Positions 2,830-32,000 of a stretch of 32,000 bases of DNA are shown piece after piece; position 1 is the stretch's first letter, and each line of letters starts with the position of its first letter. Origin of the DNA: Acaryochloris thomasi RCC1774. GTDB taxonomy: Bacteria > Cyanobacteriota > Cyanobacteriia > Thermosynechococcales > Thermosynechococcaceae. The notes under the pieces are model-generated. The model saw nothing but the letters and a program-made list of their open reading frames with translations, ran no database searches and was not told the DNA's origin. The stretch lies in NCBI RefSeq assembly GCF_003231495.1, contig NZ_PQWO01000012.1:151310-183309 (forward strand), written 5' to 3'. Both the position numbers and the translations under genes were made by a program.

Positions 2830-5063
2830 GTTTGTGCTGCGTCTCCAAGGTCTGCTGAAACTAAGTTCGGTTGATGATTTACAAGCCTCATACGTCCTTG
2901 AGCATCACGGTGCCAGCCTGTTGCTTCTAGTAACGGGGCTGGTGTCACTGGCCTAGTAGCATATTCCTGTGAAGGATACCCTCGCTGCTGCGTCGTGCGA
3001 AAAGCCGAAAGGTCACGCACATCATTCCATAGCTGTGGATTACTCACTAAATCCTGAGGGCTGGAGGGGACACCTCCCCGACCTGCTAATACAAAGCTAT
3101 TGCCTTGCTTGGCTGCACAACCGATAGCAATCTTCTGACTTGGGTCGCTGACGCCTTCAGGCAAGTTGACAAGAGCTGAGTCTGGGTCAGAGACAAGTGT
3201 GTCGATTTCAATGCCTCCAGCAAGTCCAAATTCAGAGCTAGCATCAATATCATTGGTTCCATTACCTGCAATCGCCTGCCGTTCTGCGAAGCCAAACAAA
3301 CCTTGGGTATTAATAGTAATATTGCCCCCCATCCCCTCAAAAGCATTGGCAACGATATTGCTATCTTGACTCGGACTTGCAAAAACAAGACCTGCATCTA
3401 TTGCGATATTGCCGCCATCACCAGTCCCCCCAGCTTCTGCTGTAATCTGACTGTTGTTACTCAGCAGCAGCAGCCCTGAGACTTGCAGATTGATATTGCC
3501 GCCTCTACCAACTTCTGTCTGTGCATTAAGAAGGCCTTGATCAAGAGTTAAGGTATCCGATGTGATGTTGAGAGTGCCTGCGGCTCCAGATCCTGAACTC
3601 GTAACGACAACTTGCGCACCATCTCTGATCGTTAATTGCGGAGTATTGATACTTAAGACTCCACCAGCACCGGAGCCATCAGTTGCAGCGGATAAGTTAC
3701 TTGGTATTGGAACTGGTGAGCCAATACCAGAAATTTCTATCAGCTCAGAGGCGTTAATGACTATATCGCCTGCCTTTCCCTGGCTAAGAGTGCCAGAAGA
3801 GATAAAACCTCCGTTGCGGATGAACAGCTTCTGAGTATCAATCAGGATATCTCCTCCGTTACCAGTTACTGGTGCATTTATTACCTCCTGTTCATCGATA
3901 CCGACTTGCGAGAACAAAGAACTCGGCACACCATCAATTTCAACTGAGTCAGTTGCGAGAACTTCTATATTGCCGCCATTACCAAAATCGGTAGTAGCAT
4001 TGGAGATCTGTGTATTACTTAGGACAATGTGCCGACCTCTGAGTCGAATCGTCCCACCAGCGCCACTAGCATCGATGGAGGCCAGATCGCCAAACAAAGC
4101 TGGAACCACAGAGGGATCGAGAGGACCCAAACGAATATCTTGAAAGCTTTCAACCAAGCTGTAGTCAAGTGCCCACCCTTGATTGACCTCAGTCAAGCCA
4201 ACAAAGCTATTTCTATCAACACTACCAAGCTCAACCCGTCCTCCTAAAGCAGTAAGATGTCCACCTTCAAACATCACCTCCCTCCCGACAAGAACCAACG
4301 CATTACCTGGCCGTACCTGCAAGCCAACTGGATCCCCAGATGGAGCCAAGCCCAGGGGAGATATGTTAGTAATGGGCATTGCATTAGATTGATTGGTGAT
4401 ACCTCCCGGAGCTTCCCCAAACTGCAAGCCAATGGGAGAATTAACTGTCAATAGCGGAGTTGCTTGCGAGGATGCGGCACTAAACACCGTGCCGTCTGCA
4501 AAGGTTAAATCACTAGCAGTAGTTCCAAGGAACGAACCACCAATATCAAGAATTGCATTTGGGCCAAAAATGATACCGTTTGGATTGATCAAAAAAAGAT
4601 TAGTGGCTCCCCCAACCTGCAAAGTGCCATCGATATTGGAAATAGAGCTACCTGTCACCCGGCTGATTATATTTTCGACAGATGTATTGCCAGGCAGACG
4701 AAAATTTGCAACCTCACCCGTACGAATAGAAAATGCCTCAAAACTATGAAATAGATTGCTGCCGCGCTGAATACCACCCGTAATCTCTACCGACGACCCA
4801 GCGGTGCTGACTCGCGTTGACAGTGTACCGTCTGGCGCAGCTTGCGCAGTTGACGGGCAAGCGCCCAGTAAGAGGTTTCCTCCAATACATATCCCGCAAC
4901 ACAGCCAAGAGTGAATCCACTTATTGGCAACACGAACATTACTTAATAGATACACCTTAGTTTCTGTGAGATATTTCTGACAGCTTCCTGGAAGTATACC
5001 CACATTTGTATTTTTGCCAACATTGAGAACAAGGCAGAATCGCAAAACATTGCAAACTTGCAA
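2823..5063 (-). CDS. Filamentous-hemagglutinin-like exoprotein (TPS / haemagglutination-activity domain followed by beta-helix repeats)
   Basis: 746-aa ORF. Residues ~80-190 (nt ~4494-4826) carry TPS-domain hallmarks: NLFHSFEAF, ISRVTG and INPNGIIFG. The rest is periodic G-G-(N/D)-I type repeats (GNGGNIEV, GNGGDILI, GKAGDIVI, GRGGNINL, GDGGNIAI, GMGGNITI). The C-terminal motif is NSFVLAGRGGVPSSP. Signal-like core WLCCGICIGGNLLLGACPSTAQA. The ATG at 5063 is probably too far upstream; an in-frame GTG at 4955 is an alternative start. Confidence 0.85.
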   Translation of the reverse strand: MQVCNVLRFCLVLNVGKNTNVGILPGSCQKYLTETKVYLLSNVRVANKWIHSWLCCGICIGGNLLLGACPSTAQAAPDGTLSTRVSTAGSSVEITGGIQRGSNLFHSFEAFSIRTGEVANFRLPGNTSVENIISRVTGSSISNIDGTLQVGGATNLFLINPNGIIFGPNAILDIGGSFLGTTASDLTFADGTVFSAASSQATPLLTVNSPIGLQFGEAPGGITNQSNAMPITNISPLGLAPSGDPVGLQVRPGNALVLVGREVMFEGGHLTALGGRVELGSVDRNSFVGLTEVNQGWALDYSLVESFQDIRLGPLDPSVVPALFGDLASIDASGAGGTIRLRGRHIVLSNTQISNATTDFGNGGNIEVLATDSVEIDGVPSSLFSQVGIDEQEVINAPVTGNGGDILIDTQKLFIRNGGFISSGTLSQGKAGDIVINASELIEISGIGSPVPIPSNLSAATDGSGAGGVLSINTPQLTIRDGAQVVVTSSGSGAAGTLNITSDTLTLDQGLLNAQTEVGRGGNINLQVSGLLLLSNNSQITAEAGGTGDGGNIAIDAGLVFASPSQDSNIVANAFEGMGGNITINTQGLFGFAERQAIAGNGTNDIDASSEFGLAGGIEIDTLVSDPDSALVNLPEGVSDPSQKIAIGCAAKQGNSFVLAGRGGVPSSPQDLVSNPQLWNDVRDLSAFRTTQQRGYPSQEYATRPVTPAPLLEATGWHRDAQGRMRLVNHQPNLVSADLGDAAQTC

Positions 5064-7172: not shown

Positions 7173-8909
7173 TTGCAACGCTTGCAGCAGCCTAATCGAT
7201 ACCATCTATTACTTCTCTTGGCATCGATTGTGTTAGGGCTGGGGCTGCGGCTGATAAACCTAACCGATAAATGCCTCTGGACTGATGAGCTGGCAACCTT
7301 AGTTTTCAGCCTCGGGCACAGCTTTTTAAGTATTCCTCTCGATCAGATCATCACATCTGAGACCCTTCTGCAGCCGTTGGTCCCAGATCCTCAGCTCAAC
7401 CTCGGAGGCGTCGTTGAGCATTTACTAGGGGAAAGCAACCATCCGCCCCTCTATTTTTGGCTCACGCATCTGTGGCTGCAGATGTTCCCGACCCCAGACG
7501 GCCTCGTTTCTTTGTGGGGAGCGCGATCTCTCTCGGCCCTATTCGGCACTGCGGCGATTCCGGCCATCTTTTGCCTAGGCTATCTTGCCTTCCGCTCGCT
7601 CTGGATTGCCCAGTTAGCAGCGCTATTAATGGCGACCTCTCCCCTCGCCATTTATCTGGCTCAAGAAGCGCGTCATTACACGCTCCCGATTTTGTGGGTG
7701 ATCGCTTCCCTCGCCTGTTTGATAATCGCCACCCGTGCCCTAGCCGAACGCCGTCCCTTACCCTTGTGGGTGATGCTGGTCTGGATTGTAGTCAATGGAT
7801 TGGGAACAGCATCACACTATTTCTTTAGCCTGACCCTCTGCGCTGAGGGGATTGTTTTGCTCGGTTTAGCAGGTCGACAGATCCAGCAGCAGGCCCTCTC
7901 TACAGACAAAACTCTCAAAGCAAACCGTTCTTTCTGGCAAAAGCATCCACTTCGATCAACGTGGCTGCGAATTGGAGTAGTGGGCGCAGGGACGTTGGCA
8001 AGCTTGGTGGTCTGGCTTCCTTTTCTGCAGGGCGTTCAGGATAGCGAGATCACGCAGTGGATCCATCGGGGCAATCGCGTCGGACTAGAATGGCTCGATC
8101 CGGTTTTGCAAATCCTGGCGGGGGCGAGCACGATGCTCTACATGCTGCCCATCCAGGCGAGCAATGCGCCCCTCAGCGTGGTGTCGTTTGTGGCGCTGGT
8201 GTTGCTAGCGATTTGGACGGGCTTCAAAATTAATCAGGGACTGCGGATTTCTAGCGCCAATGGCTATGCGGTCTGGATTCTAGGTGGGTTTGTTGTCGGT
8301 GCGATCGCAACTTTTTTAATCATCACCTATGGCTTCGAGCGGGAGGTGACCAGTGCCCCGCGCTATCATTTCGTCTTCTTCCCTGCGGTCATACTGCTGA
8401 TTGCCGCTGCATTGGTCCAGCAGTGGTCGCCTTCTCGAGCTGTTTTGAAACAGACGGCCATTATTATTGTCAGCCTCAGTCTACTGGGCGCAATCACCGT
8501 CGTCAGCAACCTCGGCTATCAAAAAACCCATCGTCCCGACATCGTCGCTCAAGCCATTCGAGAAGGCCCCTCCCAACAAAGCCTGATTGTCATCGCCCAT
8601 TCAACCCACGGCCAAACAGGACGAATGATGGCCCTTGCCTGGGACTTTAAACACCGTCCCCTCCAGCCTGCGCCACTTTTTTTAATGGCCCACATCATCG
8701 ACAAGCCAGAATCAGTCCTCATTCCCCTTCAGCATTCGCTGGAACAGATATCAACCCCCATCACACTTTGGCTGCTTGAGTTCAAGGGAGTTCCCGAAGA
8801 CGCACTGCAGGCAACGCTCGCTGCCCATCACTGCCAGCCTCAGCCTCAAGTCAAATCAGCCACAGACGGCTATCGATATCGCATGCATAGATGTAGAGGT
8901 GATCAGTGA
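7173..8909 (+). CDS. Polytopic membrane glycosyltransferase, ArnT/PMT-like (GT39/GT83-type)
   Basis: 578-aa ORF with many hydrophobic helices. The N-terminal region LGLRLINLTDKCLWTDELATLVFSLG...HPPLYFWLTH is typical of cyanobacterial dolichyl-phosphate-mannose-type or ArnT-like transferases. Only near-cognate starts are available (TTG at 7173 or 7182). Confidence 0.7.
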   Translation: MQRLQQPNRYHLLLLLASIVLGLGLRLINLTDKCLWTDELATLVFSLGHSFLSIPLDQIITSETLLQPLVPDPQLNLGGVVEHLLGESNHPPLYFWLTHLWLQMFPTPDGLVSLWGARSLSALFGTAAIPAIFCLGYLAFRSLWIAQLAALLMATSPLAIYLAQEARHYTLPILWVIASLACLIIATRALAERRPLPLWVMLVWIVVNGLGTASHYFFSLTLCAEGIVLLGLAGRQIQQQALSTDKTLKANRSFWQKHPLRSTWLRIGVVGAGTLASLVVWLPFLQGVQDSEITQWIHRGNRVGLEWLDPVLQILAGASTMLYMLPIQASNAPLSVVSFVALVLLAIWTGFKINQGLRISSANGYAVWILGGFVVGAIATFLIITYGFEREVTSAPRYHFVFFPAVILLIAAALVQQWSPSRAVLKQTAIIIVSLSLLGAITVVSNLGYQKTHRPDIVAQAIREGPSQQSLIVIAHSTHGQTGRMMALAWDFKHRPLQPAPLFLMAHIIDKPESVLIPLQHSLEQISTPITLWLLEFKGVPEDALQATLAAHHCQPQPQVKSATDGYRYRMHRCRGDQ

Positions 8910-16812: not shown

Positions 16813-18384
16813 ATGAAAGACCTGAAAGATAATAGCATTGTGGATCTTAAGAACGATCCAGAGACAATGCTGGAGAAAATGATTAACCGCAACGTTAAAT
16901 TCCAGGTTGTGGAGTATATTTCAGCCGCAGCGGCTGTCGGTGGCACGATCGCAACTGGTCTCGGTCAGAGTGCGGTGTTTGCAGCAGCTCCTCTCACCTT
17001 TTCGGTGTGTCTTAACCTGCTAAATCGGCGAAACCTCAATCAGCTTACGCGTCAGCGGATGTTTGCAGACACCACGGAGATTCAGAACCTCTTGACCAGC
17101 GATATTCAAGAGTTGAGGGCTGGTTTCCAAGAGCTGCCTGAGGTGCGCGAGGCGATTGATCTGACCGAGATGCAGGCCGCGCTTGCGGCGGTGTCTGAGA
17201 ATGTCTCAGCCCTAGAAGAGAAAGCGCTCGCCCCAGTCAGTGAAACGGGCGAACCACAAACGGCCTTGGCTGCTGATATGGATCAGCTCCGAGCCCACCA
17301 GATTGAGTTAGCTGAAGCCATCGAATCGGTGAAGCAGCAGCTTGCCGATGCGCCTGAAGCAACGGTTGTCGGACCCGATATGAGTGGCGAACTGGCGACA
17401 CTACGGGATGCGATCGCAAACCTAGAGCAGCGCGACAACGGTGCAGAATCCGTACCCAACTTAGAACCACTACGGGCTGAGCTGCAGGCGATGCTCACTC
17501 CCGTACAAACACAGGTTTCGGCTTTAAATGATCGTCTCCACAACCAGCCCGTCGAAGGGGATGCTGAAGGCAGCAGCTTTAACGCTGGATCTTCAGGCCA
17601 GGTGCTAGAGCTACAGGGGCACTTAGAAGGTCTCAATACCAAGGTAGACAACGCTTTTGTTAATCTTTCCGATGAGCTAGCTGCTGTTCGGGGCACCGTG
17701 GAAGGCACTCAAGGGCAGCTTGAAGGTGTCCAGCAGCGGATTACCGATGAAGTGGCTGGGGTACGCGGTGCCGTTGATAACACTCAAAATCAAGTTAACG
17801 ACATTCAGGGACGTATAGAGGGCGTCGGTGGCACCGTCGATAACACCCAAAATCAAATCAATGATATTCAAGGACGCTTAGAAGGCGTCAGTGGTGCTGT
17901 CGATAATACCCAGAATCAAATCAACGAGATTCAGGGACGTCTAGAGGGCGTCGGTGGCGCTGTTGAAAACACCCAGAATCAAATCAATGATATTCAGGGA
18001 CGCCTAGAGGGAGTACAGCAGGGCACAGGCGAACTGCCGACCGAGCAGATTGAAGCTCAAATGCAGACAGCCTTGAACCCGATTAAAGAGCATCTTAATA
18101 ACTTAGATGGCAAGATCGAAGCGATACCCTCTCTTGATCCGGCGGCGATTCAGGGCCAAGGAGAACAGCTGCAGGCGCTGCAGGGGCAGCTTCACAGCAT
18201 GGGCACACGCATCGATAACGTCTCATCTCAGGTTTCCACTGAGATGGCTAATCTGCCGAACCTCGTGGATCAAAAAATCAAAGAAAGCTCAGACTCACGT
18301 CCGCCTTCACCTCCACCTGTCGAGGAGAAGAAGGCGAGCAAACTTTTTGAACTGGATGCGTTGCTGGCAGATCTGGAATCCTAG
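16813..18384 (+). CDS. Membrane-anchored coiled-coil protein with 21-aa tandem repeats (hypothetical)
   Basis: 523 aa. Hydrophobic segment at residues ~33-70 (VEYISAAAAVGGTIATGLGQSAVFAAAPLTFSVCLNLL). The remainder is Q/E/L/A-rich with heptad character. Pro-rich PPSPPPVEEKK lies near the C-terminus. Confidence 0.8.
   Translation: MKDLKDNSIVDLKNDPETMLEKMINRNVKFQVVEYISAAAAVGGTIATGLGQSAVFAAAPLTFSVCLNLLNRRNLNQLTRQRMFADTTEIQNLLTSDIQELRAGFQELPEVREAIDLTEMQAALAAVSENVSALEEKALAPVSETGEPQTALAADMDQLRAHQIELAEAIESVKQQLADAPEATVVGPDMSGELATLRDAIANLEQRDNGAESVPNLEPLRAELQAMLTPVQTQVSALNDRLHNQPVEGDAEGSSFNAGSSGQVLELQGHLEGLNTKVDNAFVNLSDELAAVRGTVEGTQGQLEGVQQRITDEVAGVRGAVDNTQNQVNDIQGRIEGVGGTVDNTQNQINDIQGRLEGVSGAVDNTQNQINEIQGRLEGVGGAVENTQNQINDIQGRLEGVQQGTGELPTEQIEAQMQTALNPIKEHLNNLDGKIEAIPSLDPAAIQGQGEQLQALQGQLHSMGTRIDNVSSQVSTEMANLPNLVDQKIKESSDSRPPSPPPVEEKKASKLFELDALLADLES
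17773..18024 (+). repeat. Four tandem 63-bp (21-codon) repeats inside the coiled-coil gene
   Basis: Units start at 17773, 17836, 17899 and 17962. They encode VDNTQNQVNDIQGRIEGVGGT, VDNTQNQINDIQGRLEGVSGA, VDNTQNQINEIQGRLEGVGGA and VENTQNQINDIQGRLEGVQQG. Degenerate units precede them from ~17686. Confidence 0.9.
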
Positions 18385-21871: not shown

Positions 21872-22159
21872 TCAGGCAATATCATCTGAACGGCGTTTCC
21901 ATGCACCAAAGCGTTCGGCATAGAAGTCTAGTATTTTTTCCAGCTGCTCCTGATCGATCTTTGCAAGACTTTCAGGATGACGAATTCGCAGCCAACCTAC
22001 CTGACTTTGCATATAATCAAATTCTTGGGCATCCTGCGGCAGCAGCTCGGTCTCAACGCTTTCAACCTGACCTAGATGAGCCGCAATTTCACTGTAAACG
22101 GCCAGCGGTAGTTCAGAATATTGAATATCGTATTGTTGCAACGTCACGGATAAGCTCAA
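21872..22159 (-). CDS. Hypothetical protein, co-oriented 9 nt downstream of the LuxR-type regulator
   Basis: 95-aa ORF. The 9-nt gap to the upstream gene suggests one operon. Confidence 0.55.
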   Translation of the reverse strand: MSLSVTLQQYDIQYSELPLAVYSEIAAHLGQVESVETELLPQDAQEFDYMQSQVGWLRIRHPESLAKIDQEQLEKILDFYAERFGAWKRRSDDIA

Positions 22160-22168
22160 TAACTAAGA

Positions 22169-22462
22169 CTAGGACTCAACTCGCGAAGACTCAGAAGCCT
22201 CCATTGAACCATTCGGCAGCAAGCAGCAGTTTACATTATCGAGGCAAACCTTTCCCCACTCTAAGGCCCAGCGAACAAGGGCCACTCTATTCTCAGTCCC
22301 TGTCTTGGTGAGAATATTGCTGATGTGATTGTCTACGGTGCGCTTACTGATCTCTAAGCGCTGCGAAATCTCCTCATTTTTGAGCCCAGAGGACACTAAC
22401 TCGATCACCTGCACCTCACGCTCAGATAGGGCATGACCTGTCTGTAGTTCTCCCGCGCTCAT
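22169..22462 (-). CDS. Stand-alone small LuxR-type HTH regulator (PedR-like)
   Basis: 97 aa. LuxR/GerE HTH LSEREVQVIELVSSGLKNEEISQRLEISKRTVDNHISNILTKTG with no receiver or ligand domain. C-terminal Cys cluster at C73, C79 and C80. Confidence 0.8.
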   Translation of the reverse strand: MSAGELQTGHALSEREVQVIELVSSGLKNEEISQRLEISKRTVDNHISNILTKTGTENRVALVRWALEWGKVCLDNVNCCLLPNGSMEASESSRVES

Positions 22463-22604: not shown

Positions 22605-24212
22605 TCAAGAAACTTGGCCAGACGTAACGGGTGCGATCGCATCTAAGACCAAATCAGGGTGGTCACCATTCACCTGATGCAGATTCCAGCTGTTCTTAAA
22701 CAGCAGCACTGGCCGGTCCCAGCTATCTTTGACCGTAATTGCATTGAAGATACGTCCCACCTTCTCTAACGCGGGCCATCCATCCTTCACCCAGCGGGCC
22801 ACCGTATAGGGCAGCAGCTCTAGGCGAGTTTCAACCCCGTATTCATTTTGCAGCCGGAACTGGACAACTTCGATCTGAAGCTGACCCACCGCCGCCAGAA
22901 TCGGATCGCGCTTAGACTCATCAGCAGAGTACATAATCTGCACCGCCCCTTCTTCTCTCAGCTCGGAGATTCCCTTCTGGAACTGCTTGAACTTAGAGGG
23001 ATTTGGGTTCTTGAGATAGGCAAATAGTTCCGGTGAGAAGCAGGGAATACCGTCGTACTCAAGTTTTTTACCTTGAAAGATAGTGTCGCCGATAGCAAAC
23101 ATGCCTGGATTGTTGAGGCCAATCACGTCCCCAGGATAGGCTTCGTCAATTGAAGCTCGACCTTGGGCAAATAGTTTTTGAGGGCGGGAAAGACGAATCG
23201 TTTTGCCGGTGCGAGCATGGCTGACGGTCATGTCTTTTTCAAACTTACCGGAGCAAACGCGAATGAAAGCGACGCGATCACGATGCTTCGGGTCCATGTT
23301 GGCCTGCAGCTTGAACACGAACCCTGAAAAGTCTTCATAGGTGGGTTCAATATCACCCAACGTACTGTGATAAGCACAGGGCTTCAAAGCGTAGTCCATG
23401 AAGGCTTCTAGGAATAGCTCCACGCCAAAGTTAGTCATGGCACTACCGAAGAAGATCGGCGTCATCAAACCCGCATGAACCATTTCCATATCTAGCTCAG
23501 GACCGAGTTCCTCGATCACCTCTAGCTCGTCTTTGAACTGGAAGTAGAGATCTTGATCTAGTAAATCTTCAATCTTCGGATCACCGATATCGACAATGGT
23601 TGTTTTCGCTTCCCGCCGACCGTGACCGCTGCGCTCAAACAGATGAATTTTGCGACTGCGGCGATCAAAAACACCCTTAAAGCGATCGCCCATCCCAATC
23701 GGCCAGTTCACGGCGTAGGTCTGCAGCTCTAATTCTTGCTCAATCTCGTCCAGTAGCTCCAGCGGCTCTCGGCCGGGTCGGTCGAGCTTGTTGATGAAGG
23801 TAAAGATGGGAAGCGATCGCAACTTACACACTTCAAATAGCTTGCGCGTTTGTGGTTCCAAACCCTTGGCCGCATCTACTAGCATCACAGCATTGTCCGC
23901 CGCCGCTAAGGTTCGGTAGGTATCTTCGCTGAAGTCTTGGTGCCCCGGCGTATCCAACAGATTAATCTGGCAATCCTGATAGGCAAACTGCAGCACCGTC
24001 GAAGTAATGGAGATGCCGCGCTGCTGCTCCATTTCCATCCAGTCAGAGGTCGCATGACGCTGCGCTCGCCGAGCCTTCACGGCTCCAGCTTCATGAATCG
24101 CGCCTCCATAAAGCAAGAGCTTTTCCGTTAGCGTTGTCTTACCCGCGTCCGGGTGCGAAATAATCGCAAAGTTACGGCGACTTTCTACGGCTGTAGCGAG
24201 TTCAGAGGACAT
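22605..24212 (-). CDS. prfC: Peptide chain release factor 3
   Basis: GTPase motifs [20 protein letters not shown] and FINKLDR, with full-length RF3-like sequence. The ORF track extends to TTG 24341; the ATG at 24212 ([22 protein letters not shown]) fits RF3 N-termini. Confidence 0.93.
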
Positions 24213-24619
24213 GCACAAAAAGGAAGGATCAGTGACTTCATTATAGAGTGGGCCTTTGACTTTCAGGGAGCCTAAGGCAAATCCCCACGATTTCACCTTT
24301 CGAGCATCTCGCTCATCCTCTGCTAACCCAATATCTGACAATTACAAGATAAGAACACGAACATCATCGGCCGTATATACGACAAGCTTATTTTGATTAA
24401 GGAAAAATTAATTTTCCCGAAATAAAAAACTTCAAAACCTTAGGTCGTTACGACTGTTATAAAAGTTATTTGTTTTGCCAGATATAAATATTGCGCTCTC
24501 CAAGATTTAAAGACAGAATGAGGATGCGAGATGCTCTATTTTTAATGAATAATAAGAAAGCATTCGGACATGCGGTGGGGCAACGTTCAGATCAAGTTTT
24601 AGAACAGGGGAACCCAATA

Positions 24620-25261
24620 ATGAGAATAATCAGCCCAGGGCTATTATTGGCTCTAGCAAGCGTGCTGGCCGTGGCCACATCCGTCTCTGCAGAAGACAAT
24701 AAGGCCGCTTCATTAGCCCCCAATGGTTCCATTCAGCCTGCAGGGGGGCAGCTTGGTGGCGCTCCCCTTCCTCCGCCGATTAATCATCGTGCATTTCAAA
24801 AGCCAGAACTTTTAGACAACTATGGGTTGATCAAGGGCATTCAAAATGACAAGGTCTCTGTTCGGCTTTTAAATGGAGATATCAAGACGTATCTTCTCGC
24901 TTCAAACACTGTAGGCGCTAAGCTAAGGCGCGGCGGTCTCGTTGGATTTAGGACAAACATCAAGGGAGAAATTACCAGGCTTTCACCCCCTCAAGTTCGC
25001 AAGGTTTATACCGGCACTTTAATCATTGTCGACGGTCAGAAGATCGGCATGGTGACGCCTCAGGGTGACCGCTTCATCACCACATTAGCCAAGAATAAGA
25101 TTGCTCGGATGGGTTTAGCTCCCGGTCAACCCATTAAAATCACCCAATATCGAGGAACGTGGGCCACGAAGGTGTGTCAGCCAGGAGCACTCAATGATGA
25201 TGATTCTTTCCCGATCCTGGCGGAGCAAGGGCGTGGCACTATTATTCCTCAAGAACAGTAG
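24620..25261 (+). CDS. Secreted protein of unknown function, paralog family P (C-terminal ~128-aa module)
   Basis: The ORF track starts at TTG 24491. The ATG at 24620 gives a clean signal peptide, MRIISPGLLLALASVLAVATSVSA, preceded by GGGGA. The C-terminal module (nt ~24809-25192) is ~70% identical by eye to that of the next gene. Confidence 0.75.
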   Translation: MRIISPGLLLALASVLAVATSVSAEDNKAASLAPNGSIQPAGGQLGGAPLPPPINHRAFQKPELLDNYGLIKGIQNDKVSVRLLNGDIKTYLLASNTVGAKLRRGGLVGFRTNIKGEITRLSPPQVRKVYTGTLIIVDGQKIGMVTPQGDRFITTLAKNKIARMGLAPGQPIKITQYRGTWATKVCQPGALNDDDSFPILAEQGRGTIIPQEQ

Positions 25262-25303
25262 TCATTGATTAGAGTTCTGGCTTGATTCAGCGTTAATGAT
25301 TTT

Positions 25304-25345
25304 TGAGACTTCCGCTATGCAAGCATGGTGGAAATCTCAGTTTTA
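25304..25345 (+). terminator. Candidate intrinsic terminator after the 24620 gene
   Basis: Stem TGAGACTTCC (25304-25313) / GGAAATCTCA (25330-25339) with one mismatch, followed by GTTTTA. Confidence 0.35.
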
Positions 25346-25803
25346 GAGGTTGTTATGGAGTTGCGATCGCAATTCCATAAACAACACTCTGCACCAAGCA
25401 ATATCGCCCATCACCTATATCATTCTCAAAATCGAAAATGAGAAATCATTCACCTATACAAAGCAGCTTGTTTTTAACAGCCCTAAATTACCCCTTAGAA
25501 AGGCTCATAAAGGGCTGTTTCCGATCTTAGATTGCAGTCAATACAACATCCGTCTTCTAGAGCCGTCTTCGCAGTGAGCCTGTAAGTCATTTTCTTCTTT
25601 AAATCAGAGAGGGAAGCGGACTCTCGGATGCATGGTATGCAGGCAGAAATTAAATATCGGCAACATATACTACACTCAAAGAAAAATATAGTAGAATAGA
25701 CCAGCGGCCTAAGACCAAGTCAATCAGCATCTAGAGCTTAGTCAGCGCCTTTAAAATATGCCGGGGGGCAGTTAAGAAAAAGCCTTAGATTCAGGTATCC
25801 CCC

Positions 25804-27270
25804 ATGAACAAAAGAATTTACTATACAGCTCTCACACTTGCGATCACGGGAATCTGTACAGCTGCAACAGCTGTCGCCGCCGCAGACGAAAGTATTACCA
25901 CGACTTCTCCATCTCCTATAGATTCTTACGCCGATCAGAATCTTCAGGGAGAGATACTTGTAGCCTCTGCTCCTCTATCAGATGCTGAGACAACAGTTAC
26001 AAGCTACTCTAAGCAGCCTAAGCATTTAGAGGGACCTAATATTCCTCCCCGAGTCTTAGCTTCTCCTGATCTCCAACCTCTCGCAAGACTAGATATTGAA
26101 AAGACGCCTATTACAAATGGAGTAGTAGAAGTTTCTACGTCAAACATTGACTTCTCAGCAACGCTAACCTTCAAACCCTCTGCACAGACAATCGCTGAGA
26201 TCCAGGCACTAGAATCAAAGACATCTCACAGCTTTGACAATAGTGCATCTTTACTGGCTCTGGCTTCAGAAACTGTTGAACCAGCCAACGCAGGCATTAG
26301 GTCACAGGTAGTTGAAACACCAGAGCCTGTTGTACAGAACATCAACTTCCCAACAGCTCCAACATTCACTCCTTCCGCACAGACAATCGCTGAAATTCAA
26401 GCTCCAGAGTTAAAGACATCTCACAGCTTTGATAGCAGTGCATCTTTACTGGCTTTGGCCTCAGAAATCGTTGAAGAAACTAATACTGAGTCCGAGGTGC
26501 TGAAAGATGAAAAAACGGAAGCTGTTGTCTCAGACATTAACTTACCAATAGTTCCAACTTCCTCCGCCATGGCACAAGCCATTCCTGAATTTCAAGCACC
26601 CGCAGTTGAAGCTGACCAATCTGTTGAACATGGTGCTGCATTACTGAGACCTTTAGCACCAGGCCTTACCGCAGAACCTAAACTAGAAAATTCAGCCACC
26701 ATTCAAAGGAATAGTGTTGCAGATGCAGTAGTAGCGCCAGCGCCAAAACAAACACCTACGCTACAAAGCAATCTTGATAGGGCCCCCATAACTCCAAAGT
26801 CATCAGAAATTTTGGATAACTATGGATTAGTCAACTCTATCAAAGGCAATAAAGTCTCGGTTCGTCTCTTAAACGGAAAGAATAAAACCTACTTGCTAGC
26901 TTCTAATTCCGCAGGGAGTCAAATCAGGCGTGGCGGCTTAATGGGTTTTAACACGGATCGCCGAGGTAGAATTACGCGTCTCGCGCCTCCTAAGATCAAA
27001 AAGATTTACCAAGGCACTCTAGTTATCGTGGAAGGGACAAAAATTGGCATGGTGACACCTGAAGGAGAACGTTTTATCACAACGCTTTCGAAGAGAAAGA
27101 TTGCTCACATGGGCCTAGCGCCTGGACAGCCGATCAAGATCACTCAATACAGTGGAACTTGGGCCACAAAAGTTTGCCGTCCGGGAGTATTAAGCGATCG
27201 CCAGATTTCATCTGATGCGATGCAGAGGCAAAGAAATTTCTTGAGGGGTGAAACCTCACCAAAATCTTAA
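25804..27270 (+). CDS. Secreted repeat protein of unknown function, paralog family P
   Basis: 488 aa. Signal peptide MNKRIYYTALTLAITGICTAATAVAA. Three 65-aa repeats in the S/T/P/A/E-rich middle. The C-terminal module (nt ~26809-27192), ILDNYGLVNSIKGNKVSVRLLNG...ITQYSGTWATKVCRPG, is shared with the 24620 gene. Confidence 0.8.
   Translation: MNKRIYYTALTLAITGICTAATAVAAADESITTTSPSPIDSYADQNLQGEILVASAPLSDAETTVTSYSKQPKHLEGPNIPPRVLASPDLQPLARLDIEKTPITNGVVEVSTSNIDFSATLTFKPSAQTIAEIQALESKTSHSFDNSASLLALASETVEPANAGIRSQVVETPEPVVQNINFPTAPTFTPSAQTIAEIQAPELKTSHSFDSSASLLALASEIVEETNTESEVLKDEKTEAVVSDINLPIVPTSSAMAQAIPEFQAPAVEADQSVEHGAALLRPLAPGLTAEPKLENSATIQRNSVADAVVAPAPKQTPTLQSNLDRAPITPKSSEILDNYGLVNSIKGNKVSVRLLNGKNKTYLLASNSAGSQIRRGGLMGFNTDRRGRITRLAPPKIKKIYQGTLVIVEGTKIGMVTPEGERFITTLSKRKIAHMGLAPGQPIKITQYSGTWATKVCRPGVLSDRQISSDAMQRQRNFLRGETSPKS
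26143..26676 (+). repeat. Three tandem 195-bp (65-codon) repeats inside the 25804 gene
   Basis: Units begin at residues N114, N179 and D244. The first is NIDFSATLTFKPSAQTIAEIQALESKTSHSFDNSASLLALASETVE. The second is NINFPTAPTFTPSAQTIAEIQAPELKTSHSFDSSASLLALASEIVE. The third is degenerate: DINLPIVPTSSAMAQAIPEFQAPAVEADQSVEHGAALLRPLA. Confidence 0.75.
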
Positions 27271-27739
27271 GAAATAAAGACCTTAGAGGACGCTCAGAAA
27301 ATCAGCCTAGGAAGTCGGAAAGGCTTTCTAGGCTGACCTATTAAAGAGCAGCAGAGAATCTTTTCTATCACCTCTTTTGATCTTTCAATAGCTAAGTGGC
27401 CCTAGAGATAAAAAACAGCAAAATAACGGCAAAAAGTTTATTTAGGATACAGAATTACCTGATCTTCACCGATGCAGATAAAACAGTAGATCAAGGCTGG
27501 CTAAAAAAGAATGCCTGAGTTGAATTAATCTCCTGAAGCCGGCTCAGATCGCTCTATAGACTTGATATTTCGTCGTTGGTCGATAATCTCTGTAAGTATA
27601 GAAATGACAAAAAAATAATTATAGACACGAAAAAAGCCTGCGCAGACAAGATTTTTACTGTTCTGAAAATCAAGAAAACTTAAGTAAATAGGCCAAGGAA
27701 AGGAAATTCGTATCTTCTTTCTGTATTAATTAACTTGTC

Positions 27740-28141
27740 TTACTTCCCCTCGTATTCAAAGGATTTAATAACGGTAAAATCGTAGGTTACTTTTCCCTTT
27801 GGCAAATCATACTGAAAATCTGAATAGATTTCATTGTAAGCCGCAGCGTACTGTGGCAAAAACAAGTAGTGATAGAATCCTTGGGGAGGGAAGAAACTAG
27901 AGCCAAATCCATTGAGGCCAAACCCAAACCCTCCGGCAGCAAATACATTTCCGGAAAATCCACCCGCTGTAAATGCATTACCGGAAAATCCACCTACAGA
28001 ATTTGCAGGTAGGAAAAATGCCTCGGCAGGCGTTGCCTGAGGAGAAGTAGACTGACCAAAGATAATTTGCGCGTTGGCCCCATTTGTAAACGATGCCAAG
28101 GCCACCGATAGAGTTGTTAACGCAAGTACAGGAACTTTCAT
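27740..28141 (-). CDS. Secreted Gly/Phe-repeat protein (hypothetical)
   Basis: 133 aa. Signal peptide MKVPVLALTTLSVALASFTNGANA. Decapeptide repeats GGFSGNAFTA / GGFSGNVFAA / GGFGFGLNGF (nt ~27902-27994). Aromatic-rich C-terminal part ending VTYDFTVIKSFEYEGK. Confidence 0.65.
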   Translation of the reverse strand: MKVPVLALTTLSVALASFTNGANAQIIFGQSTSPQATPAEAFFLPANSVGGFSGNAFTAGGFSGNVFAAGGFGFGLNGFGSSFFPPQGFYHYLFLPQYAAAYNEIYSDFQYDLPKGKVTYDFTVIKSFEYEGK

Positions 28142-28385
28142 GGGACAAGCCTCACAGCAGAACAGATAGAATAAAGGGCAGAATTATCTTTTCGTTTAGT
28201 AGCTTAATTTATGTAAAAAAGATATAAAGAACATGAAATAATGCCTTTGAGAAGCTGCATCCCTCCCACAAGATATAGCTCCTTTAAAGATATTTGGGCC
28301 ATCTGTGCTTTTCGTCTACTACAACCACGACTGGCACATTGATCAATGTATTCCCAAAGAAAACTACTCAGCGATTGAGCCGAGC

Positions 28386-28832
28386 CTATCTGCCTCGCGG
28401 TCCTACCTGTGGCTCTGGACTACTCCGTCGAGGTCCGCGATCTCCACTGGCACCCGTTGTGACATTGGTTGTATGCACAAAATCAGCATAATCAAAAGAT
28501 TCACTGAATTCGTAGACGGTGGTTGTTAGCCTTTCTCCACGCTCTCTCGTTATAGAGGTATTTATAGTGCCGTTATCAGAAACGGTTGTAGTTGTGGCAC
28601 CATTGGCCCGATTAGAGGTATGACTGGAGTCACGTTGAGAATCAGTGGTGATAGAGAAGCCATTTTCACTCGTTTGTTCCCTTGTCACAACACGGTTGTT
28701 ACGCTCTGCATGCCCCTGTGGGCTGACAACGAAGTTCATCACAGTTGTGCCAGAAGCATTCTGTGCCAGGCTTGGCAATACAAATGTCAAGAGCCAAAAA
28801 GGTGAAAGCACAAGAACATATTTGGGTTTCAT
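28386..28832 (-). CDS. Secreted Thr/Ser/Asn-rich protein, distant member of the GFDF family
   Basis: The ATG at 28832 gives the signal peptide MKPKYVLVLSPFWLLTFVLPSLA; the ORF track starts 18 codons earlier. The segment RERGERLTTTVYEFSESFDYADFVHTTNVTTG aligns by eye with REQGTVLKNTTVRVQESYEFTGFQESHRVTAG of the 29852 gene. Confidence 0.6.
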   Translation of the reverse strand: MKPKYVLVLSPFWLLTFVLPSLAQNASGTTVMNFVVSPQGHAERNNRVVTREQTSENGFSITTDSQRDSSHTSNRANGATTTTVSDNGTINTSITRERGERLTTTVYEFSESFDYADFVHTTNVTTGASGDRGPRRSSPEPQVGPRGR

Positions 28833-28949
28833 ACTAACAATTCTCGCTTTTCGACAGGGTAGGCAGCTACCATTTATAACCATCATCTCTATTCAAGAGT
28901 AAAGAAACATCCCTAACGACAGCTCAACTTAAGCCAAGGATGATTCAGA

Positions 28950-29783
28950 CTACTGCCGTGCTTGAACACTTGATTCCTGAGTGCTAGCCGTTGCGGGTCG
29001 CTGCAGCTGTGCCGGCTGAACTGGTCGCTGCGGCTGAGGTACGGCCTGCTGTTGAACAGGTTGAATGGGCTGGCCTGACTGCTGCTGTACAAAATTTTGA
29101 TTCGTAGCAGACGGCTCATTGATAAGCTGCTCAGCTTGCTGTCGGGAGACGGGCTGGACTTGTTGCTGGCCCGCTTGCTGCTGTCGAGAAACAGGTTGCG
29201 CTTGCTGTTGACCCAGTTGTGGCTGACGGCCTCGGGCATTACGATTATTCTGCTGTGGCGCAGCACCAAATGGGCTGGCACCAGGCTGCGGAACGGTGAC
29301 AGTTGGGCACTCAAGGCCAGCAAGCTGATTAAGATCTTCGTAGCTAATCTTGATTCCAGATTTAATCATTTTGGAATAGTTACTAATGACTAGCAAACAA
29401 GTTTCCAAAGACGCTCTGGCTAATTGTGTCTTTGCATATGCTCGGCAGGTATCTACACCAAATGACTTGGTATAGGTAAATGAGCCACCAATAGAACCTG
29501 TATCGAAGGGACCGATTCCATTACCAAAAGCAGATAGCGCAATACCAGAGCTGGAGCAGTCAGCGATACCATTACCAACAACACTTCTGCCTAGAGGGAA
29601 TGAATTCACTTGTGTATTAACAAGCGATCCCTGCTGGTTTAGATCAACGACAGGATTCGCCGTTGAGTTTGCATTGTTGGGAGCATCAATATTGTTTGTG
29701 GTAGCCTGTGCAGACACTTTCCCTGCAGTACACAATAGCAAGCCAACAACTGAAGCACCCGCCATTAAATGACGATAATTCAT
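28950..29783 (-). CDS. Secreted 4-Cys protein with Q/P-rich C-terminal tail (hypothetical)
   Basis: 277 aa. Signal peptide MNYRHLMAGASVVGLLLCTAGKVSA. The mature N-domain is G/S/N-rich with Cys76, Cys113, Cys129 and Cys159. The tail from residue ~165 (nt 28953-29291) is about one third Gln (36 of ~113 by my count). Confidence 0.7.
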   Translation of the reverse strand: MNYRHLMAGASVVGLLLCTAGKVSAQATTNNIDAPNNANSTANPVVDLNQQGSLVNTQVNSFPLGRSVVGNGIADCSSSGIALSAFGNGIGPFDTGSIGGSFTYTKSFGVDTCRAYAKTQLARASLETCLLVISNYSKMIKSGIKISYEDLNQLAGLECPTVTVPQPGASPFGAAPQQNNRNARGRQPQLGQQQAQPVSRQQQAGQQQVQPVSRQQAEQLINEPSATNQNFVQQQSGQPIQPVQQQAVPQPQRPVQPAQLQRPATASTQESSVQARQ

Positions 29784-29851
29784 TTCATGTTCTCCTAGGC
29801 CAACGATAGGGGCATTAATAAATTTTTGCCCCCCAAATTTCTAAGTGCGGA

Positions 29852-30259
29852 TTAAAAGTCAAACCCGGCTGTAACTCTGTGACTTTCCTGGAAACCAGTA
29901 AACTCATAAGACTCCTGTACACGAACCGTTGTGTTCTTAAGTACAGTGCCTTGCTCCCTGGAATAACTTCTGGATGTAACGTCAAAGTAGGTGTCTTCTT
30001 GGACGTTGCGGCCATCTTCGACGTAGGTAATTGAAGTTTTACCTCGCTCACGCTTTACCGCAAAGGCATCAGCTTCGCGCTCGCCATTATAAACTTCTCT
30101 AACATTGAGCCTAGTTTCTGCCTTGCCATTTGTGATGACCCGCCGACTTTGGCTATTCCCAACATAAGCACTGCCTGCTATTGCTGGCAGTGAAGCTACA
30201 AGCCAAGAGAAACAGATAAGAGGGAGGAATCTACGGCATTTCATTTTAAACACCATCAA
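29852..30259 (-). CDS. Secreted small beta-rich protein, GFDF family (divergent copy)
   Basis: 135 aa; the likely start is the MKCRRF ATG at 30244. Signal peptide ...WLVASLPAIAGSAYVGNS. The C-terminus ESYEFTGFQESHRVTAGFDF matches the two copies downstream in coordinates. Confidence 0.7.
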   Translation of the reverse strand: MMVFKMKCRRFLPLICFSWLVASLPAIAGSAYVGNSQSRRVITNGKAETRLNVREVYNGEREADAFAVKRERGKTSITYVEDGRNVQEDTYFDVTSRSYSREQGTVLKNTTVRVQESYEFTGFQESHRVTAGFDF

Positions 30260-30389
30260 GTTATCAAAACCATCGGGGTGTCACTAAAATGCAATCTAGT
30301 TTGCAAGAATTTACCCCGTACGACTTGTAGGTTAAGCCTCACTGCTCTCAAAGCAAAAAGGCTTAACCCATGAGAGAGAAATACGAAAA

Positions 30390-30815
30390 CTAGAAGTCGA
30401 AACCAGAAGTCACGCGGTGAGTCTTGTCGAAGCCAGAGAAGTCGTAGGACTCATGGACTGCAACATCAGTTGTATTTTTGAAACGACCGTGCTCACTAGA
30501 CCAGCTGCTAACACTAATATCAGCGACATCAACTTCTGAGAAATTAGTCTCACGCCAAGAGCCAGCAACATCACCCTTCTCAGTGTAATCAGTTGTTGTT
30601 ACGCTCCACTCATTCTTCACCGCATCGGAGCCGGCTGAACGAGTCCCTTTATAGACCTCATGCACCTTAACCTTAGTATCTGAATGGCCGTTGTAAGTAT
30701 TCTTTAGGTTGAAGCTGTTCTCAACGTAGGAACTTCCAGCCAAGGAAGGAAGAGCTGCAAAACCTACGAGAATTGCAGAAAGAGGAAGAACTCTTTGAAG
30801 TTTCATAATATTCAC
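30390..30815 (-). CDS. Secreted small beta-rich protein, GFDF family (cassette copy 1)
   Basis: 141 aa. Signal peptide MNIMKLQRVLPLSAILVGFAALPSLAG. About 82% identical (25 mismatches of 141 by my count) to the 31043 copy. Ends FSGFDKTHRVTSGFDF. Confidence 0.8.
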   Translation of the reverse strand: MNIMKLQRVLPLSAILVGFAALPSLAGSSYVENSFNLKNTYNGHSDTKVKVHEVYKGTRSAGSDAVKNEWSVTTTDYTEKGDVAGSWRETNFSEVDVADISVSSWSSEHGRFKNTTDVAVHESYDFSGFDKTHRVTSGFDF

Positions 30816-31042
30816 TACTGAATAACTGCTTTAGAAAATAGAGAAGGGCACGTCGCCTTCACATACACTGATAAACTCAACAGATCTTGACCTGAGCAAT
30901 ATAAGGAATCGCTTTAAATCGGGATTAACCTCAATAGGTAGTTGCAGAAACACTACAGAATCAAGACAATGAACGTCTTAAACTTTTGCTACCTGTTCAA
31001 AACTATCCCGGTATTGCTCAGGCGATATGACTAAAGAATTGC

Positions 31043-31468
31043 TTAGAAGTCGAAGCCAGAAGTCACGCGGTGAGTCTTGTCGAAGCCAGAGAATTGGTAG
31101 GACTCATCCACTGCAACTTTTGTTGAATTAATGAATGCACCGCTTTCCTCGGACCAGCTGCTAACGCTAATATCAGCGACATCAACTTCTGAGAAATTAG
31201 TCTCACGCCAAGAGCCAGCAACATCGCCCTTCTCGTTGTAATCAGTTTTTGTAATACTGTATTCATCCTTGGTCGCATCAGAACCAGCAGAACGAGTACC
31301 CAGATAAAGCTGATTGACATCAACATCAGTTTTAGAATAGCCGTTGTAAGTATTCTTTAGATTGAAGCTGTTCTCAACGTAGGAACTTCCAGCCAAAGAA
31401 GGAAGAGCTGCGAAGCCAACGAGAATTGCAGAAAGAGGAAGAATTCTTTGAATTTTCATGATACTCAC
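31043..31468 (-). CDS. Secreted small beta-rich protein, GFDF family (cassette copy 2)
   Basis: 141 aa. Signal peptide MSIMKIQRILPLSAILVGFAALPSLAG. Same architecture and identical C-terminal 16 aa as copy 1. Confidence 0.8.
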   Translation of the reverse strand: MSIMKIQRILPLSAILVGFAALPSLAGSSYVENSFNLKNTYNGYSKTDVDVNQLYLGTRSAGSDATKDEYSITKTDYNEKGDVAGSWRETNFSEVDVADISVSSWSEESGAFINSTKVAVDESYQFSGFDKTHRVTSGFDF

Positions 31469-31698
31469 TACTAAATGATTGCTAGAGAAAATAGAGCAGG
31501 AAGAAATCTTCCCCTCGAAAATATGGCTAAATCTACAGATTTCAACCTGAGCAATACAAGGAATCGCTTTAAATCAGGATTAGCCTCAATAGGTAGGTAC
31601 AAATAGCACTACAGAGTCAAGGCAATGAGCGCCTTAAACTTTCGCTATCAGTTCAAAACTATCCCGGTATTGTTCAGGCGATATGACTAAAGAATCGC

Positions 31699-31828
31699 TT
31701 AGAAGTCGAAGCCAGAAGTCACGCGGTGAGTCTTGTCGAAGCCAGAGAATTGGTAGGACTCATCCACTGCAACTGTTGTTGAATTATCGAATGAACCGCT
31801 CTCTTTAGACCAGCTGCTAACGCTAATA
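31699..31828 (-). pseudogene. 3' fragment of a third GFDF-family cassette copy
   Basis: Encodes only ...ISVSSWSKESGSFDNSTTVAVDESYQFSGFDKTHRVTSGFDF plus a stop. Homology to copy 2 ends abruptly after 31828. An in-frame TAG lies just upstream, and there is no start codon or signal peptide. Confidence 0.75.
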
Positions 31829-31833
31829 AGTAG

Positions 31834-32000
31834 CTAGGCGGAATTAAACTTAAGACGGTGTACCTTGTATTTGCCCTTTTCACCTCGAGCGGTCATCCCT
31901 TCGATGACGGCAATCGCTAAATCGTACTCATTGCTAAACATCTGCCCCGCTATTTCGTGAGCCTTAAGTTGCCGCCACTGGGTCTCAATGTCATTCAACT
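31834..32000 (-). CDS. 3' end of an unidentified gene running off the window
   Basis: Open frame to the window edge. It encodes ...LNDIETQWRQLKAHEIAGQMFSNEYDLAIAVIEGMTARGEKGKYKVHRLKFNSA with a TAG stop at 31834-31836. It is absent from the ORF track because it is under 60 codons. Family not recognised. Confidence 0.45.
   Translation of the reverse strand, partial: LNDIETQWRQLKAHEIAGQMFSNEYDLAIAVIEGMTARGEKGKYKVHRLKFNSA

Follow-up and report, generated by a model that had tools for sequence, protein, structure and literature searches.

A low-GC block beside prfC of Acaryochloris thomasi is a predicted lineage-restricted operon of signal-peptide proteins from four families without known relatives

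What is encoded by the run of small genes that follows the release-factor gene prfC in Acaryochloris thomasi RCC1774, a run that is more AT-rich than its surroundings and in which no familiar domain can be recognized? The genes lie at positions 24342-31828 (here called the block; locus tags C1752_04103 to C1752_04110) of a 32,000-nucleotide stretch of contig NZ_PQWO01000012.1, which we refer to as the window and number from 1 to 32,000. A first-pass annotation made from the letters and their open reading frames (ORFs) had read the block as accessory DNA encoding secreted proteins. Sequence comparison leads us to conclude that it is a vertically inherited, lineage-restricted operon of eight predicted signal-peptide proteins, falling into four families without known relatives. 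We tentatively favor the view—at slightly less than an even chance—that the products are co-exported, non-enzymatic subunits of one envelope, sheath or fiber assembly, in which the family designated E would be the amplified major subunit.

The eight intact genes, g1 to g8, are assigned to families A to E; one strand carries E..E-D-C-B, and A is transcribed divergently from the opposite strand. The features of the block and its two borders are as follows.

22605..24212, minus strand: prfC (release factor 3), with Pfam domains GTP_EFTU, RF3_C and EF-G_D2; the left anchor, outside the system.
24620..25261, plus strand: g1, family A, C1752_04103; signal peptide, low-complexity linker and C-terminal domain of ~140 aa.
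25804..27270, plus strand: g2, family A paralog; signal peptide, S/T/A/E/P-rich linker of ~300 aa and family-A C-terminal domain.
27740..28141, minus strand: g3, family B; signal peptide and small aromatic-rich core (FYPPxGFYHY...YDFTVIKSFEY).
28386..28832, minus strand: g4, family C; signal peptide, T/S/N-rich; a divergent paralog of family E.
28950..29783, minus strand: g5, family D; signal peptide, conserved domain of ~115 aa and variable Q/P-rich tail.
29852..30259, minus strand: g6, family E, divergent subtype; 40-42% identity to g7 and g8.
30390..30806, minus strand: g7, family E, C1752_04109; public record P0002, 138 aa, start ATG at 30806.
31043..31459, minus strand: g8, family E, C1752_04110; 100% identical to P0001, start ATG of the public record at 31459.
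31699..31827, minus strand: 3' remnant of a fourth E-family gene (42 codons and stop), 5' side missing; found by tblastn.
31834..32000, minus strand: transposase gene of the IS630 family (3' end), which borders the block on the right in A. thomasi; outside the system.

The ORF list agrees with the first-pass annotation on the eight intact genes, with their coordinates and strands, and contains no further credible gene between g1 and g8. The g1 product is a 100% match to public record P0013 (C1752_04103). Comparisons by BLASTP and hhalign sort the eight proteins into four mutually unrelated families: A (g1, g2), B (g3), C/E (g4, g6-g8) and D (g5). Two sets of paralogs had been recognized before, and both stand: g1 and g2 share 55% identity across the C-terminal 190 aa (BLASTP), and g6, g7 and g8 are 40-82% identical to one another, with g7 and g8 at 82%. 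That account was incomplete in that g4 is a distant member of the g6-g8 family; families C and E align by hhalign with a probability of 98.4% (E=5e-15, 141 columns), and g4 matches g7 by BLASTP at 4e-7.

The arrangement is shared with several relatives. In the metagenome-assembled genome (MAG) R2_Bin_82_1 (loci L001 and L007), all eight genes recur after prfC with order and orientation unchanged, and their proteins are 55-86% identical to those of the window. The order is prfC, A-B-C-D-E-E-E, argB-trmD in a Thermosynechococcaceae MAG (L006 and L009), and M20 peptidase, A-B-C-D-E-E, argB-trmD in GCA_020357715.1 (L004). The prfC of the window is 97% identical to its ortholog in L001/L007 and 92% identical to that in L006/L009, and both orthologs precede the cassette. 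The argB-trmD pair lies on the E side in L004, L006/L009, L008, L017 and locus L015 of A. marina MBIC11017; the cassette occupies a syntenic site, between or beside prfC and argB-trmD, in L001/L007, L004, L006/L009, L008 and L015. The g6 subtype of family E always adjoins D, with orthologs in the same position in L001, L004, L006 and L008.

Hidden Markov models (HMMs) of the five families were scanned over 19 loci that had been found via family D, with one genome per species. An E-D-C core is present in all 19, usually accompanied by B, and overall an E-D-C(-B) core, with or without A, is found in about 20 loci, L010-L025 included. Family A stands beside the cassette in seven of 21 loci, among them the distant L016 and L024. 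Further carriers are several MAGs of Acaryochloris and Acaryochloridaceae, Altericista sp. CCNU0014, Lyngbya confervoides BDU141951 and a MAG labeled Limnothrix, and in Petrachloros mirabilis family D is found at a contig end. All-versus-all clustering of the neighbors in 21 loci revealed no other gene family that travels with the cassette. A. marina MBIC11017 has three cassettes, two of them (AM1_4110-4113 and AM1_4114-4117) in tandem by argB-trmD and one (AM1_4602-4605) separate. The two tandem cassettes are nearly identical, the whole E-D-C-B cassette having been duplicated (L015, 7370-13388); the separate one (L012, 7537-9952) reads E-D-C-D', where D' is a short, tail-less D paralog.

Conserved synteny was among the results that the first-pass annotation had named as refuting its own description of the block as accessory, and the finding refutes it: gene order beside prfC is conserved in two other genomes and the core recurs in about 20 loci. 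Searches for plasmid, phage and viral-contig homologs gave no match, and the window contains no tRNA gene. A label of "phage-related tail fiber protein", given by JGI to protein P0010, finds no support in the PHROGs and viral searches. On the far side of prfC, just downstream of it, a GerE/LuxR-type regulator (97 aa) and a 95-aa ORF without Pfam match lie at 21872-22462 (minus strand); both are kept at the same place in L001/L007 and L006/L009, and neither lies beside the L004 cassette.

The right edge of the block is more complicated. E genes occur in one to four tandem copies across the loci, and in the window g7 and g8 each belong to a tandem unit of ~655 nt that comprises the gene and its own upstream region; the 31699-31827 remnant is what is left of a third such copy (repeats D1, D2 and D4). 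The remnant is 90% identical to residues 100-141 of g8 (tblastn), and its lost 96 N-terminal codons match P0005 (C1752_06116), which lies on another contig of A. thomasi; P0005 ends in ...NFSEVDVAD, and the fragment in the window picks up at ISVSSWS.... Beyond it, a 54-aa fragment at 31834-32000 has 55-66% identity to multi-copy cyanobacterial elements, one of which is annotated as an IS630 family transposase (tblastn). The two halves of one gene thus sit on different contigs, which points to a rearrangement mediated by the insertion sequence (IS) or else to contigs joined in assembly where an IS is repeated. The first-pass annotation had asked whether prfC is normally followed by the gene at 31834 and beyond. 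It is not: that gene is a predicted IS630 insertion, and in its place the relatives have argB-trmD, which, from their gene order, is the ancestral neighbor on the E side. This IS630 copy is the sole mobile element at the block; it interrupts a cassette gene and does not bound an insert.

Base composition was a main reason for regarding the block as distinct, and the difference is real: GC content is 0.442 in 24342-31828 compared with 0.511 in 1-24341. At the level of genes, the mean GC of the block is 0.463 and that of third codon positions (GC3) 0.411, versus 0.523 and 0.544 for 17 flank genes (Mann-Whitney p=3.5e-5 and 3.5e-4, respectively). About 34% of the block is intergenic, with a GC of 0.37-0.43 (about 0.39), and this AT-rich third adds to the dip. 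The low GC reflects the codons of S/T/N/K/Y/F-rich proteins, a low GC3 and long AT-rich spacers. Cassettes of the relatives are poorer in GC than their own flanks by 2-10 points in 11 of 13 loci, the others being L019, at 0.9 points, and L023, with no difference. Because most relatives share the dip, the compositional signal is intrinsic to the cassette and no mark of recent import; the block is atypical in the sense used for calling genomic islands, yet this is non-diagnostic of import given the same dip in the relatives.

The HIP1 octamer (GCGATCGC) is overrepresented in many cyanobacterial genomes, and the window is typical, with 17 sites observed and 0.5 expected from shuffles. The two sites reported earlier for the block are confirmed, at 25363 and 27194; the roughly 17 reported for the first 24 kb are in fact 15 in the first 24.3 kb, 17 being the count across the whole window. 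With 4.07 expected, the two sites of the block correspond to P=0.19, so the depletion of HIP1 is not significant by itself. Promoter and terminator scans returned counts not above those of shuffled sequence, and an Rfam scan of the whole window gave zero matches. When the upstream regions of the E genes are aligned, conservation is limited to a short stretch directly 5' of the start codon. A 24-nt AT-rich overlapping palindrome is present at 24391-24428, inside the 407-nt region between prfC and g1.

Coding constraint was measured against the L001 orthologs. The ratio of nonsynonymous to synonymous substitution rates (dN/dS) is 0.08-0.28 for all eight genes, with g2 at 0.28, and dN is 0.09-0.33 for the cassette genes as against 0.02-0.04 for prfC, phoH and gerE. 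The cassette proteins thus evolve 5-15 times faster than neighboring housekeeping proteins, under purifying selection. To judge from these rates the genes are functional but fast-evolving, as is often seen with exported or exposed proteins.

Export is the one property predicted for every product. With our own signal-peptide heuristic—a basic n-region, an uncharged hydrophobic h-region of at least 10 residues, and small residues at -3/-1—all eight block proteins pass, as the first-pass annotation had proposed in calling each N-terminus a Sec type I signal peptide; the heuristic is permissive, and five of 17 flank ORFs pass it too. The evidence draws its strength from conservation, such N-termini recurring in 81 of 93 relatives. 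The predicted cleavage motifs of g1 to g8 are VSA|E, AVA|A, ANA|Q, SLA|Q, VSA|Q, AIA|G, SLA|G and SLA|G, all of the small-x-small form. Heuristic inspection of the eight proteins revealed no lipobox Cys, no conserved twin-arginine and no additional transmembrane segment; an RR in the N-terminus of g6 is absent from its orthologs.

Beyond the signal peptides, none of the libraries searched places any of the proteins. Neither Pfam nor NCBIfam gives a match at E<=0.1 to any of the eight, the family alignments are likewise without significant match, and PHROGs and PADLOC make no assignment. Profile searches of the PDB with families A, B, D, E and E+C yield nothing below E=0.15, and Foldseek searches with the two AlphaFold2 (AF2) models that were built, of E and D, give no significant match. 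The earlier statement that no motif of a known family is present thus holds across all of these libraries, and the products are, as far as the libraries can detect, non-enzymatic.

Families C and E are the most informative. They are rare: a C/E profile run against 1.84 billion representative proteins recovers 35 representatives at 50% identity. The termini of E are conserved at 0.64-0.80, compared with 0.25-0.47 in the middle of the protein, and an N-terminal segment SSYVENS.NLKN.FNG and a C-terminal segment ESYDFSGFDKTHRVTSGFDF flank an indel-rich variable loop; conserved termini around a variable loop are the pattern expected of a polymerizing subunit. All listed E proteins end in an aromatic-x-aromatic motif ([FY]-x-[FY]), as do B (F-x-Y, with or without a following K or EGK) and most C proteins (F/Y-x-F/Y); the motif is internal in g4 and its orthologs, where 10-20 residues follow it. 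Mature E and C are very hydrophilic, with a grand average of hydropathy (GRAVY) of -0.7 to -1.0. No internal repeats are detected in g4 or g6-g8, and alignment A6 of the family represents a single non-repetitive unit. The AF2 model of E, from 13 sequences, is all-beta with long hairpins, at a confidence too low for use (predicted local distance difference test, pLDDT, 44.8). Its nearest Foldseek neighbors—beta-pores and FliF rings—have E>0.2 and were dismissed as meaningless, and a 496-aa protein found by the E profile (P0104) proved to be an unrelated repeat protein matching through a YxFSGF-like motif alone. In columns ~50-90 of alignment A6, members from L015, L017, L020 and L025 carry a Cys-pair insertion in the variable loop (YCGWGC, VCSSSSRC), which suggests an exposed disulfide-bonded loop in those lineages.

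Family D has 57 homologs. Its conserved domain, ~115 aa in g5, is Gly-rich plus helical, with four invariant cysteines (C76, C113, C129 and C159), and the Q/P-rich tail that follows is not alignable. In the AF2 model built from the 57 sequences (mean pLDDT 56) only helices 110-141 and 148-155 are confident (pLDDT 76-88), and disorder is predicted elsewhere, also for the tail; there is no Foldseek, PDB or Pfam match. The four cysteines of D, together with the Cys pairs of some E loops, fit a predicted location in an oxidizing compartment. In family B, alignment A5 has 15 invariant columns, mainly F, Y, P and G; hhalign detects no relation to A, C, D or E, and a PDB profile search is without match. 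The first-pass annotation had pointed out G/F-repeat and Q/P-rich sequences, and both are real: they are the repeats of g3 and the tail of g5, with the GGF/GNxF repeats forming an insertion of ~28 aa found only in the window and in L001.

The C-terminal domain of family A, ~140 aa with 59 invariant columns in alignment A3, has no internal repeat by BLASTP and no PDB relative by sequence-profile search. Its g2 form is restricted to A. thomasi and L001/L007, and the g2 linker carries 65-aa (195-nt) repeats, with a tandem repeat at 26182-26565. A possible assignment of g1 and g2 to DUF5666 (PF18914) was rejected: it rests on a UniRef label of g1, and 12 family members (g1, g2 and 10 homologs) have no match to the Pfam model at E<=1. 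The likeness to DUF5666-labeled proteins is that g1 and g2 are also predicted to be secreted and have a beta-rich C-terminal domain of ~140 aa. The charges of the families differ, B, g7 and g8 being acidic (isoelectric point, pI, 4.4-5.2) and A and D basic (pI 9-10; mature g1 9.95, mature g5 9.05).

These properties can be combined into a picture in which the cassette products would cooperate outside the cytoplasm and make up a single structure of the envelope or the extracellular space, for instance a component of a sheath, matrix or fiber. E would be the major subunit, tandemly amplified, and C, a diverged E paralog, a minor or adaptor subunit; B would be a small aromatic-rich partner, and D a spacer or anchor combining a disulfide-locked helical domain with a long variable Q/P-rich tail. 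A may be a basic accessory or assembly factor that is present only in some lineages, and the acidic B, g7 and g8 may pair electrostatically with the basic A and D. We favor an envelope or sheath role because of the signal peptides, the co-inheritance of the genes, the selection on them, the cysteines of D and of some E loops, the anatomy of E, the aromatic ends, the opposite charges, and the description of Acaryochloris as a genus with sheathed cells (PMC6002478). The matrix, sheath, surface-layer or amyloid-like functions guessed at in the first-pass annotation are plausible candidates.

Several points weigh against such a role. The most serious is that in none of the loci is the cassette linked to a gene for an outer-membrane translocator, chaperone, usher, sortase or amyloid secretion; the route of a surface structure across the outer membrane is therefore unexplained. 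A cyanobacterial Sec signal peptide may also lead to the periplasm or the thylakoid lumen. Polymerization of E through its terminal strands is conjecture, given the low pLDDT of the E model, and a search of the literature for the locus tags of the A. marina cassettes found nothing. A. thomasi RCC1774 is planktonic in culture, and the paper that describes the sheath ties it to no protein (PMC6002478).

An alternative that we consider unlikely holds that the products are soluble proteins of the periplasm or thylakoid lumen—stress, binding or chaperone-like proteins—that are co-regulated and form no polymer or surface layer. The absence of linked outer-membrane export or assembly genes and the hydrophilicity of mature E and C are in keeping with it, and it is established that a Sec signal peptide does not fix where a cyanobacterial protein ends up. 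However, E is amplified in tandem, as is the whole cassette in A. marina, E combines conserved termini with a variable core, D has a long disordered Q/P tail, and the proteins evolve rapidly; such traits would be expected of exposed structural proteins more than of soluble housekeeping ones. Quite unlikely, in our estimate, is that the proteins are small outer-membrane beta proteins inserted by the beta-barrel assembly machinery (BAM), perhaps as hetero-oligomeric barrels, with the C-terminal aromatic-x-aromatic motif serving as a beta-signal. The motif at the ends of E, B and most C proteins would suit this role, as would the all-beta, long-hairpin E model and the weak resemblance to beta-pore or ring proteins. 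The model and the fold matches are, however, not significant, the motif is internal in g4 and its orthologs, and B has extensions beyond it; the mature proteins, moreover, are only ~105-135 aa and very polar (GRAVY down to -1.0), and known 8-stranded outer-membrane proteins are longer.

The possibility that E proteins are donor-strand pilus subunits akin to the Saf-like pilins of chaperone-usher systems, with their machinery encoded elsewhere in the genome, arose from P0006 (8239-8670 in L004), which scores 21.3 bits on the Pfam model Saf-Nte_pilin (cut-off 25, E=3e-4) and matches structures of the Salmonella pilin SafA at E=0.003; several small, paralogous, tandem subunits with conserved terminal strands would also be in character. 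Yet the SafA match drops to E=0.26 when the signal peptide is removed, a family profile of 30 sequences misses SafA at E<=10, the other 12 of 13 E members scanned do not match the model, and no PapD-like chaperone or usher is found within ~8-10 kb in any locus. We rejected the P0006 lead as a chance match, dependent on the signal peptide and absent from the family profile, and regard this explanation as very unlikely. Least probable, and largely refuted, is a recently acquired genomic island or, as had been suggested earlier, a polymorphic set of secreted effectors. Its attractions were the depressed GC and GC3, the IS630 element at the right edge and the fast protein evolution; against these stand the conserved order and position in several genomes with the shared flanks prfC and argB-trmD, the same GC dip in most relatives, the lack of tRNA, integrase, plasmid, phage or viral homologs, and an IS that interrupts a cassette gene. 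Pfam, NCBIfam and PADLOC reveal no toxin, immunity or defense domains, no secretion genes are linked, and selection is purifying (dN/dS 0.08-0.28), all of which speaks against effectors.

The favored reading, of subunits of one exported assembly, was also compared with systems of known function, and on every point that could be tested the cassette falls outside curli/Fap, chaperone-usher pili, chaplins/rodlins and EbfG. The curli (csgBAC/csgDEFG) and Pseudomonas fapA-F clusters likewise encode small, Sec-exported, non-enzymatic proteins rich in S/T/N/Q/G; the pairing of a major subunit with a diverged paralog in CsgA/CsgB resembles that of E and C, and small accessory proteins are present in both. 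In contrast to these clusters, the block and the neighbors in the relatives lack a CsgG- or FapF-type channel, CsgE/F and FapA/D/E by Pfam and NCBIfam, E and C are not built of imperfect Q/N-rich internal repeats as CsgA and FapC are, and there is no sequence or profile similarity. Chaperone-usher pilins (SafA, PF09460) are, like the cassette products, tandem paralogous secreted beta-rich subunits of ~110-130 aa with conserved termini; however, the match is sub-threshold and limited to one member, and no chaperone or usher is linked, the Pfam families of PapD-like chaperones and ushers being absent among the called neighbors in L001, L004 and L006. The chaplins and rodlins of Streptomyces and EbfG1-4 of Synechococcus elongatus are sets of co-encoded small secreted paralogs with no enzyme among them, whose self-assembly yields a surface layer or matrix, and they offer an analogy only, with no sequence relation detected. 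EbfG proteins have a double-glycine leader and a dedicated PteB-type exporter and lack Sec signal peptides, chaplins have hydrophobic domains of ~55 aa, and we know of no partner in either system that resembles D in having four cysteines and a Q/P tail. The cassette is best classed with operons of exported structural proteins, as an uncharacterized variant restricted to its lineage.

A more specific and more speculative form of the proposal, which we consider unlikely, is that the cassette encodes an undescribed self-assembling surface or sheath heteropolymer specific to the Acaryochloris group. E and C would be joined through terminal beta-segments and D would tether the polymer by its Q/P tail, with no need for a dedicated chaperone, usher or amyloid channel.

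Elsewhere in the window, an 868-aa CHAT+TPR protein (223-2829, minus strand) overlaps by 7 nt a 746-aa protein (2823-5063, minus strand) that has a TPS (two-partner-secretion exoprotein) domain, and GC falls locally to 0.43 at 4.5-6 kb. A 578-aa protein at 7173-8909 (plus strand) has an N-terminal hydrophobic segment and no Pfam match, and a 523-aa coiled-coil protein is encoded at 16813-18384 (plus strand), the L001 ortholog of which has a weak HmpF-like match.

The cassette defines four families (A, B, C/E and D) without a counterpart in Pfam, NCBIfam or the PDB. Its low GC is a conserved trait of an inherited operon, and this counsels caution in composition-based island calling in cyanobacteria. 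To our knowledge, nothing has been established of the protein make-up of the Acaryochloris sheath; if the proposed role is correct, these products would be the first candidates for proteins that make up the envelope or sheath in Acaryochloris and the cyanobacteria related to it. Should the heteropolymer form of the proposal prove true, the four families without known relatives would represent a new assembly principle for Gram-negative surface structures.

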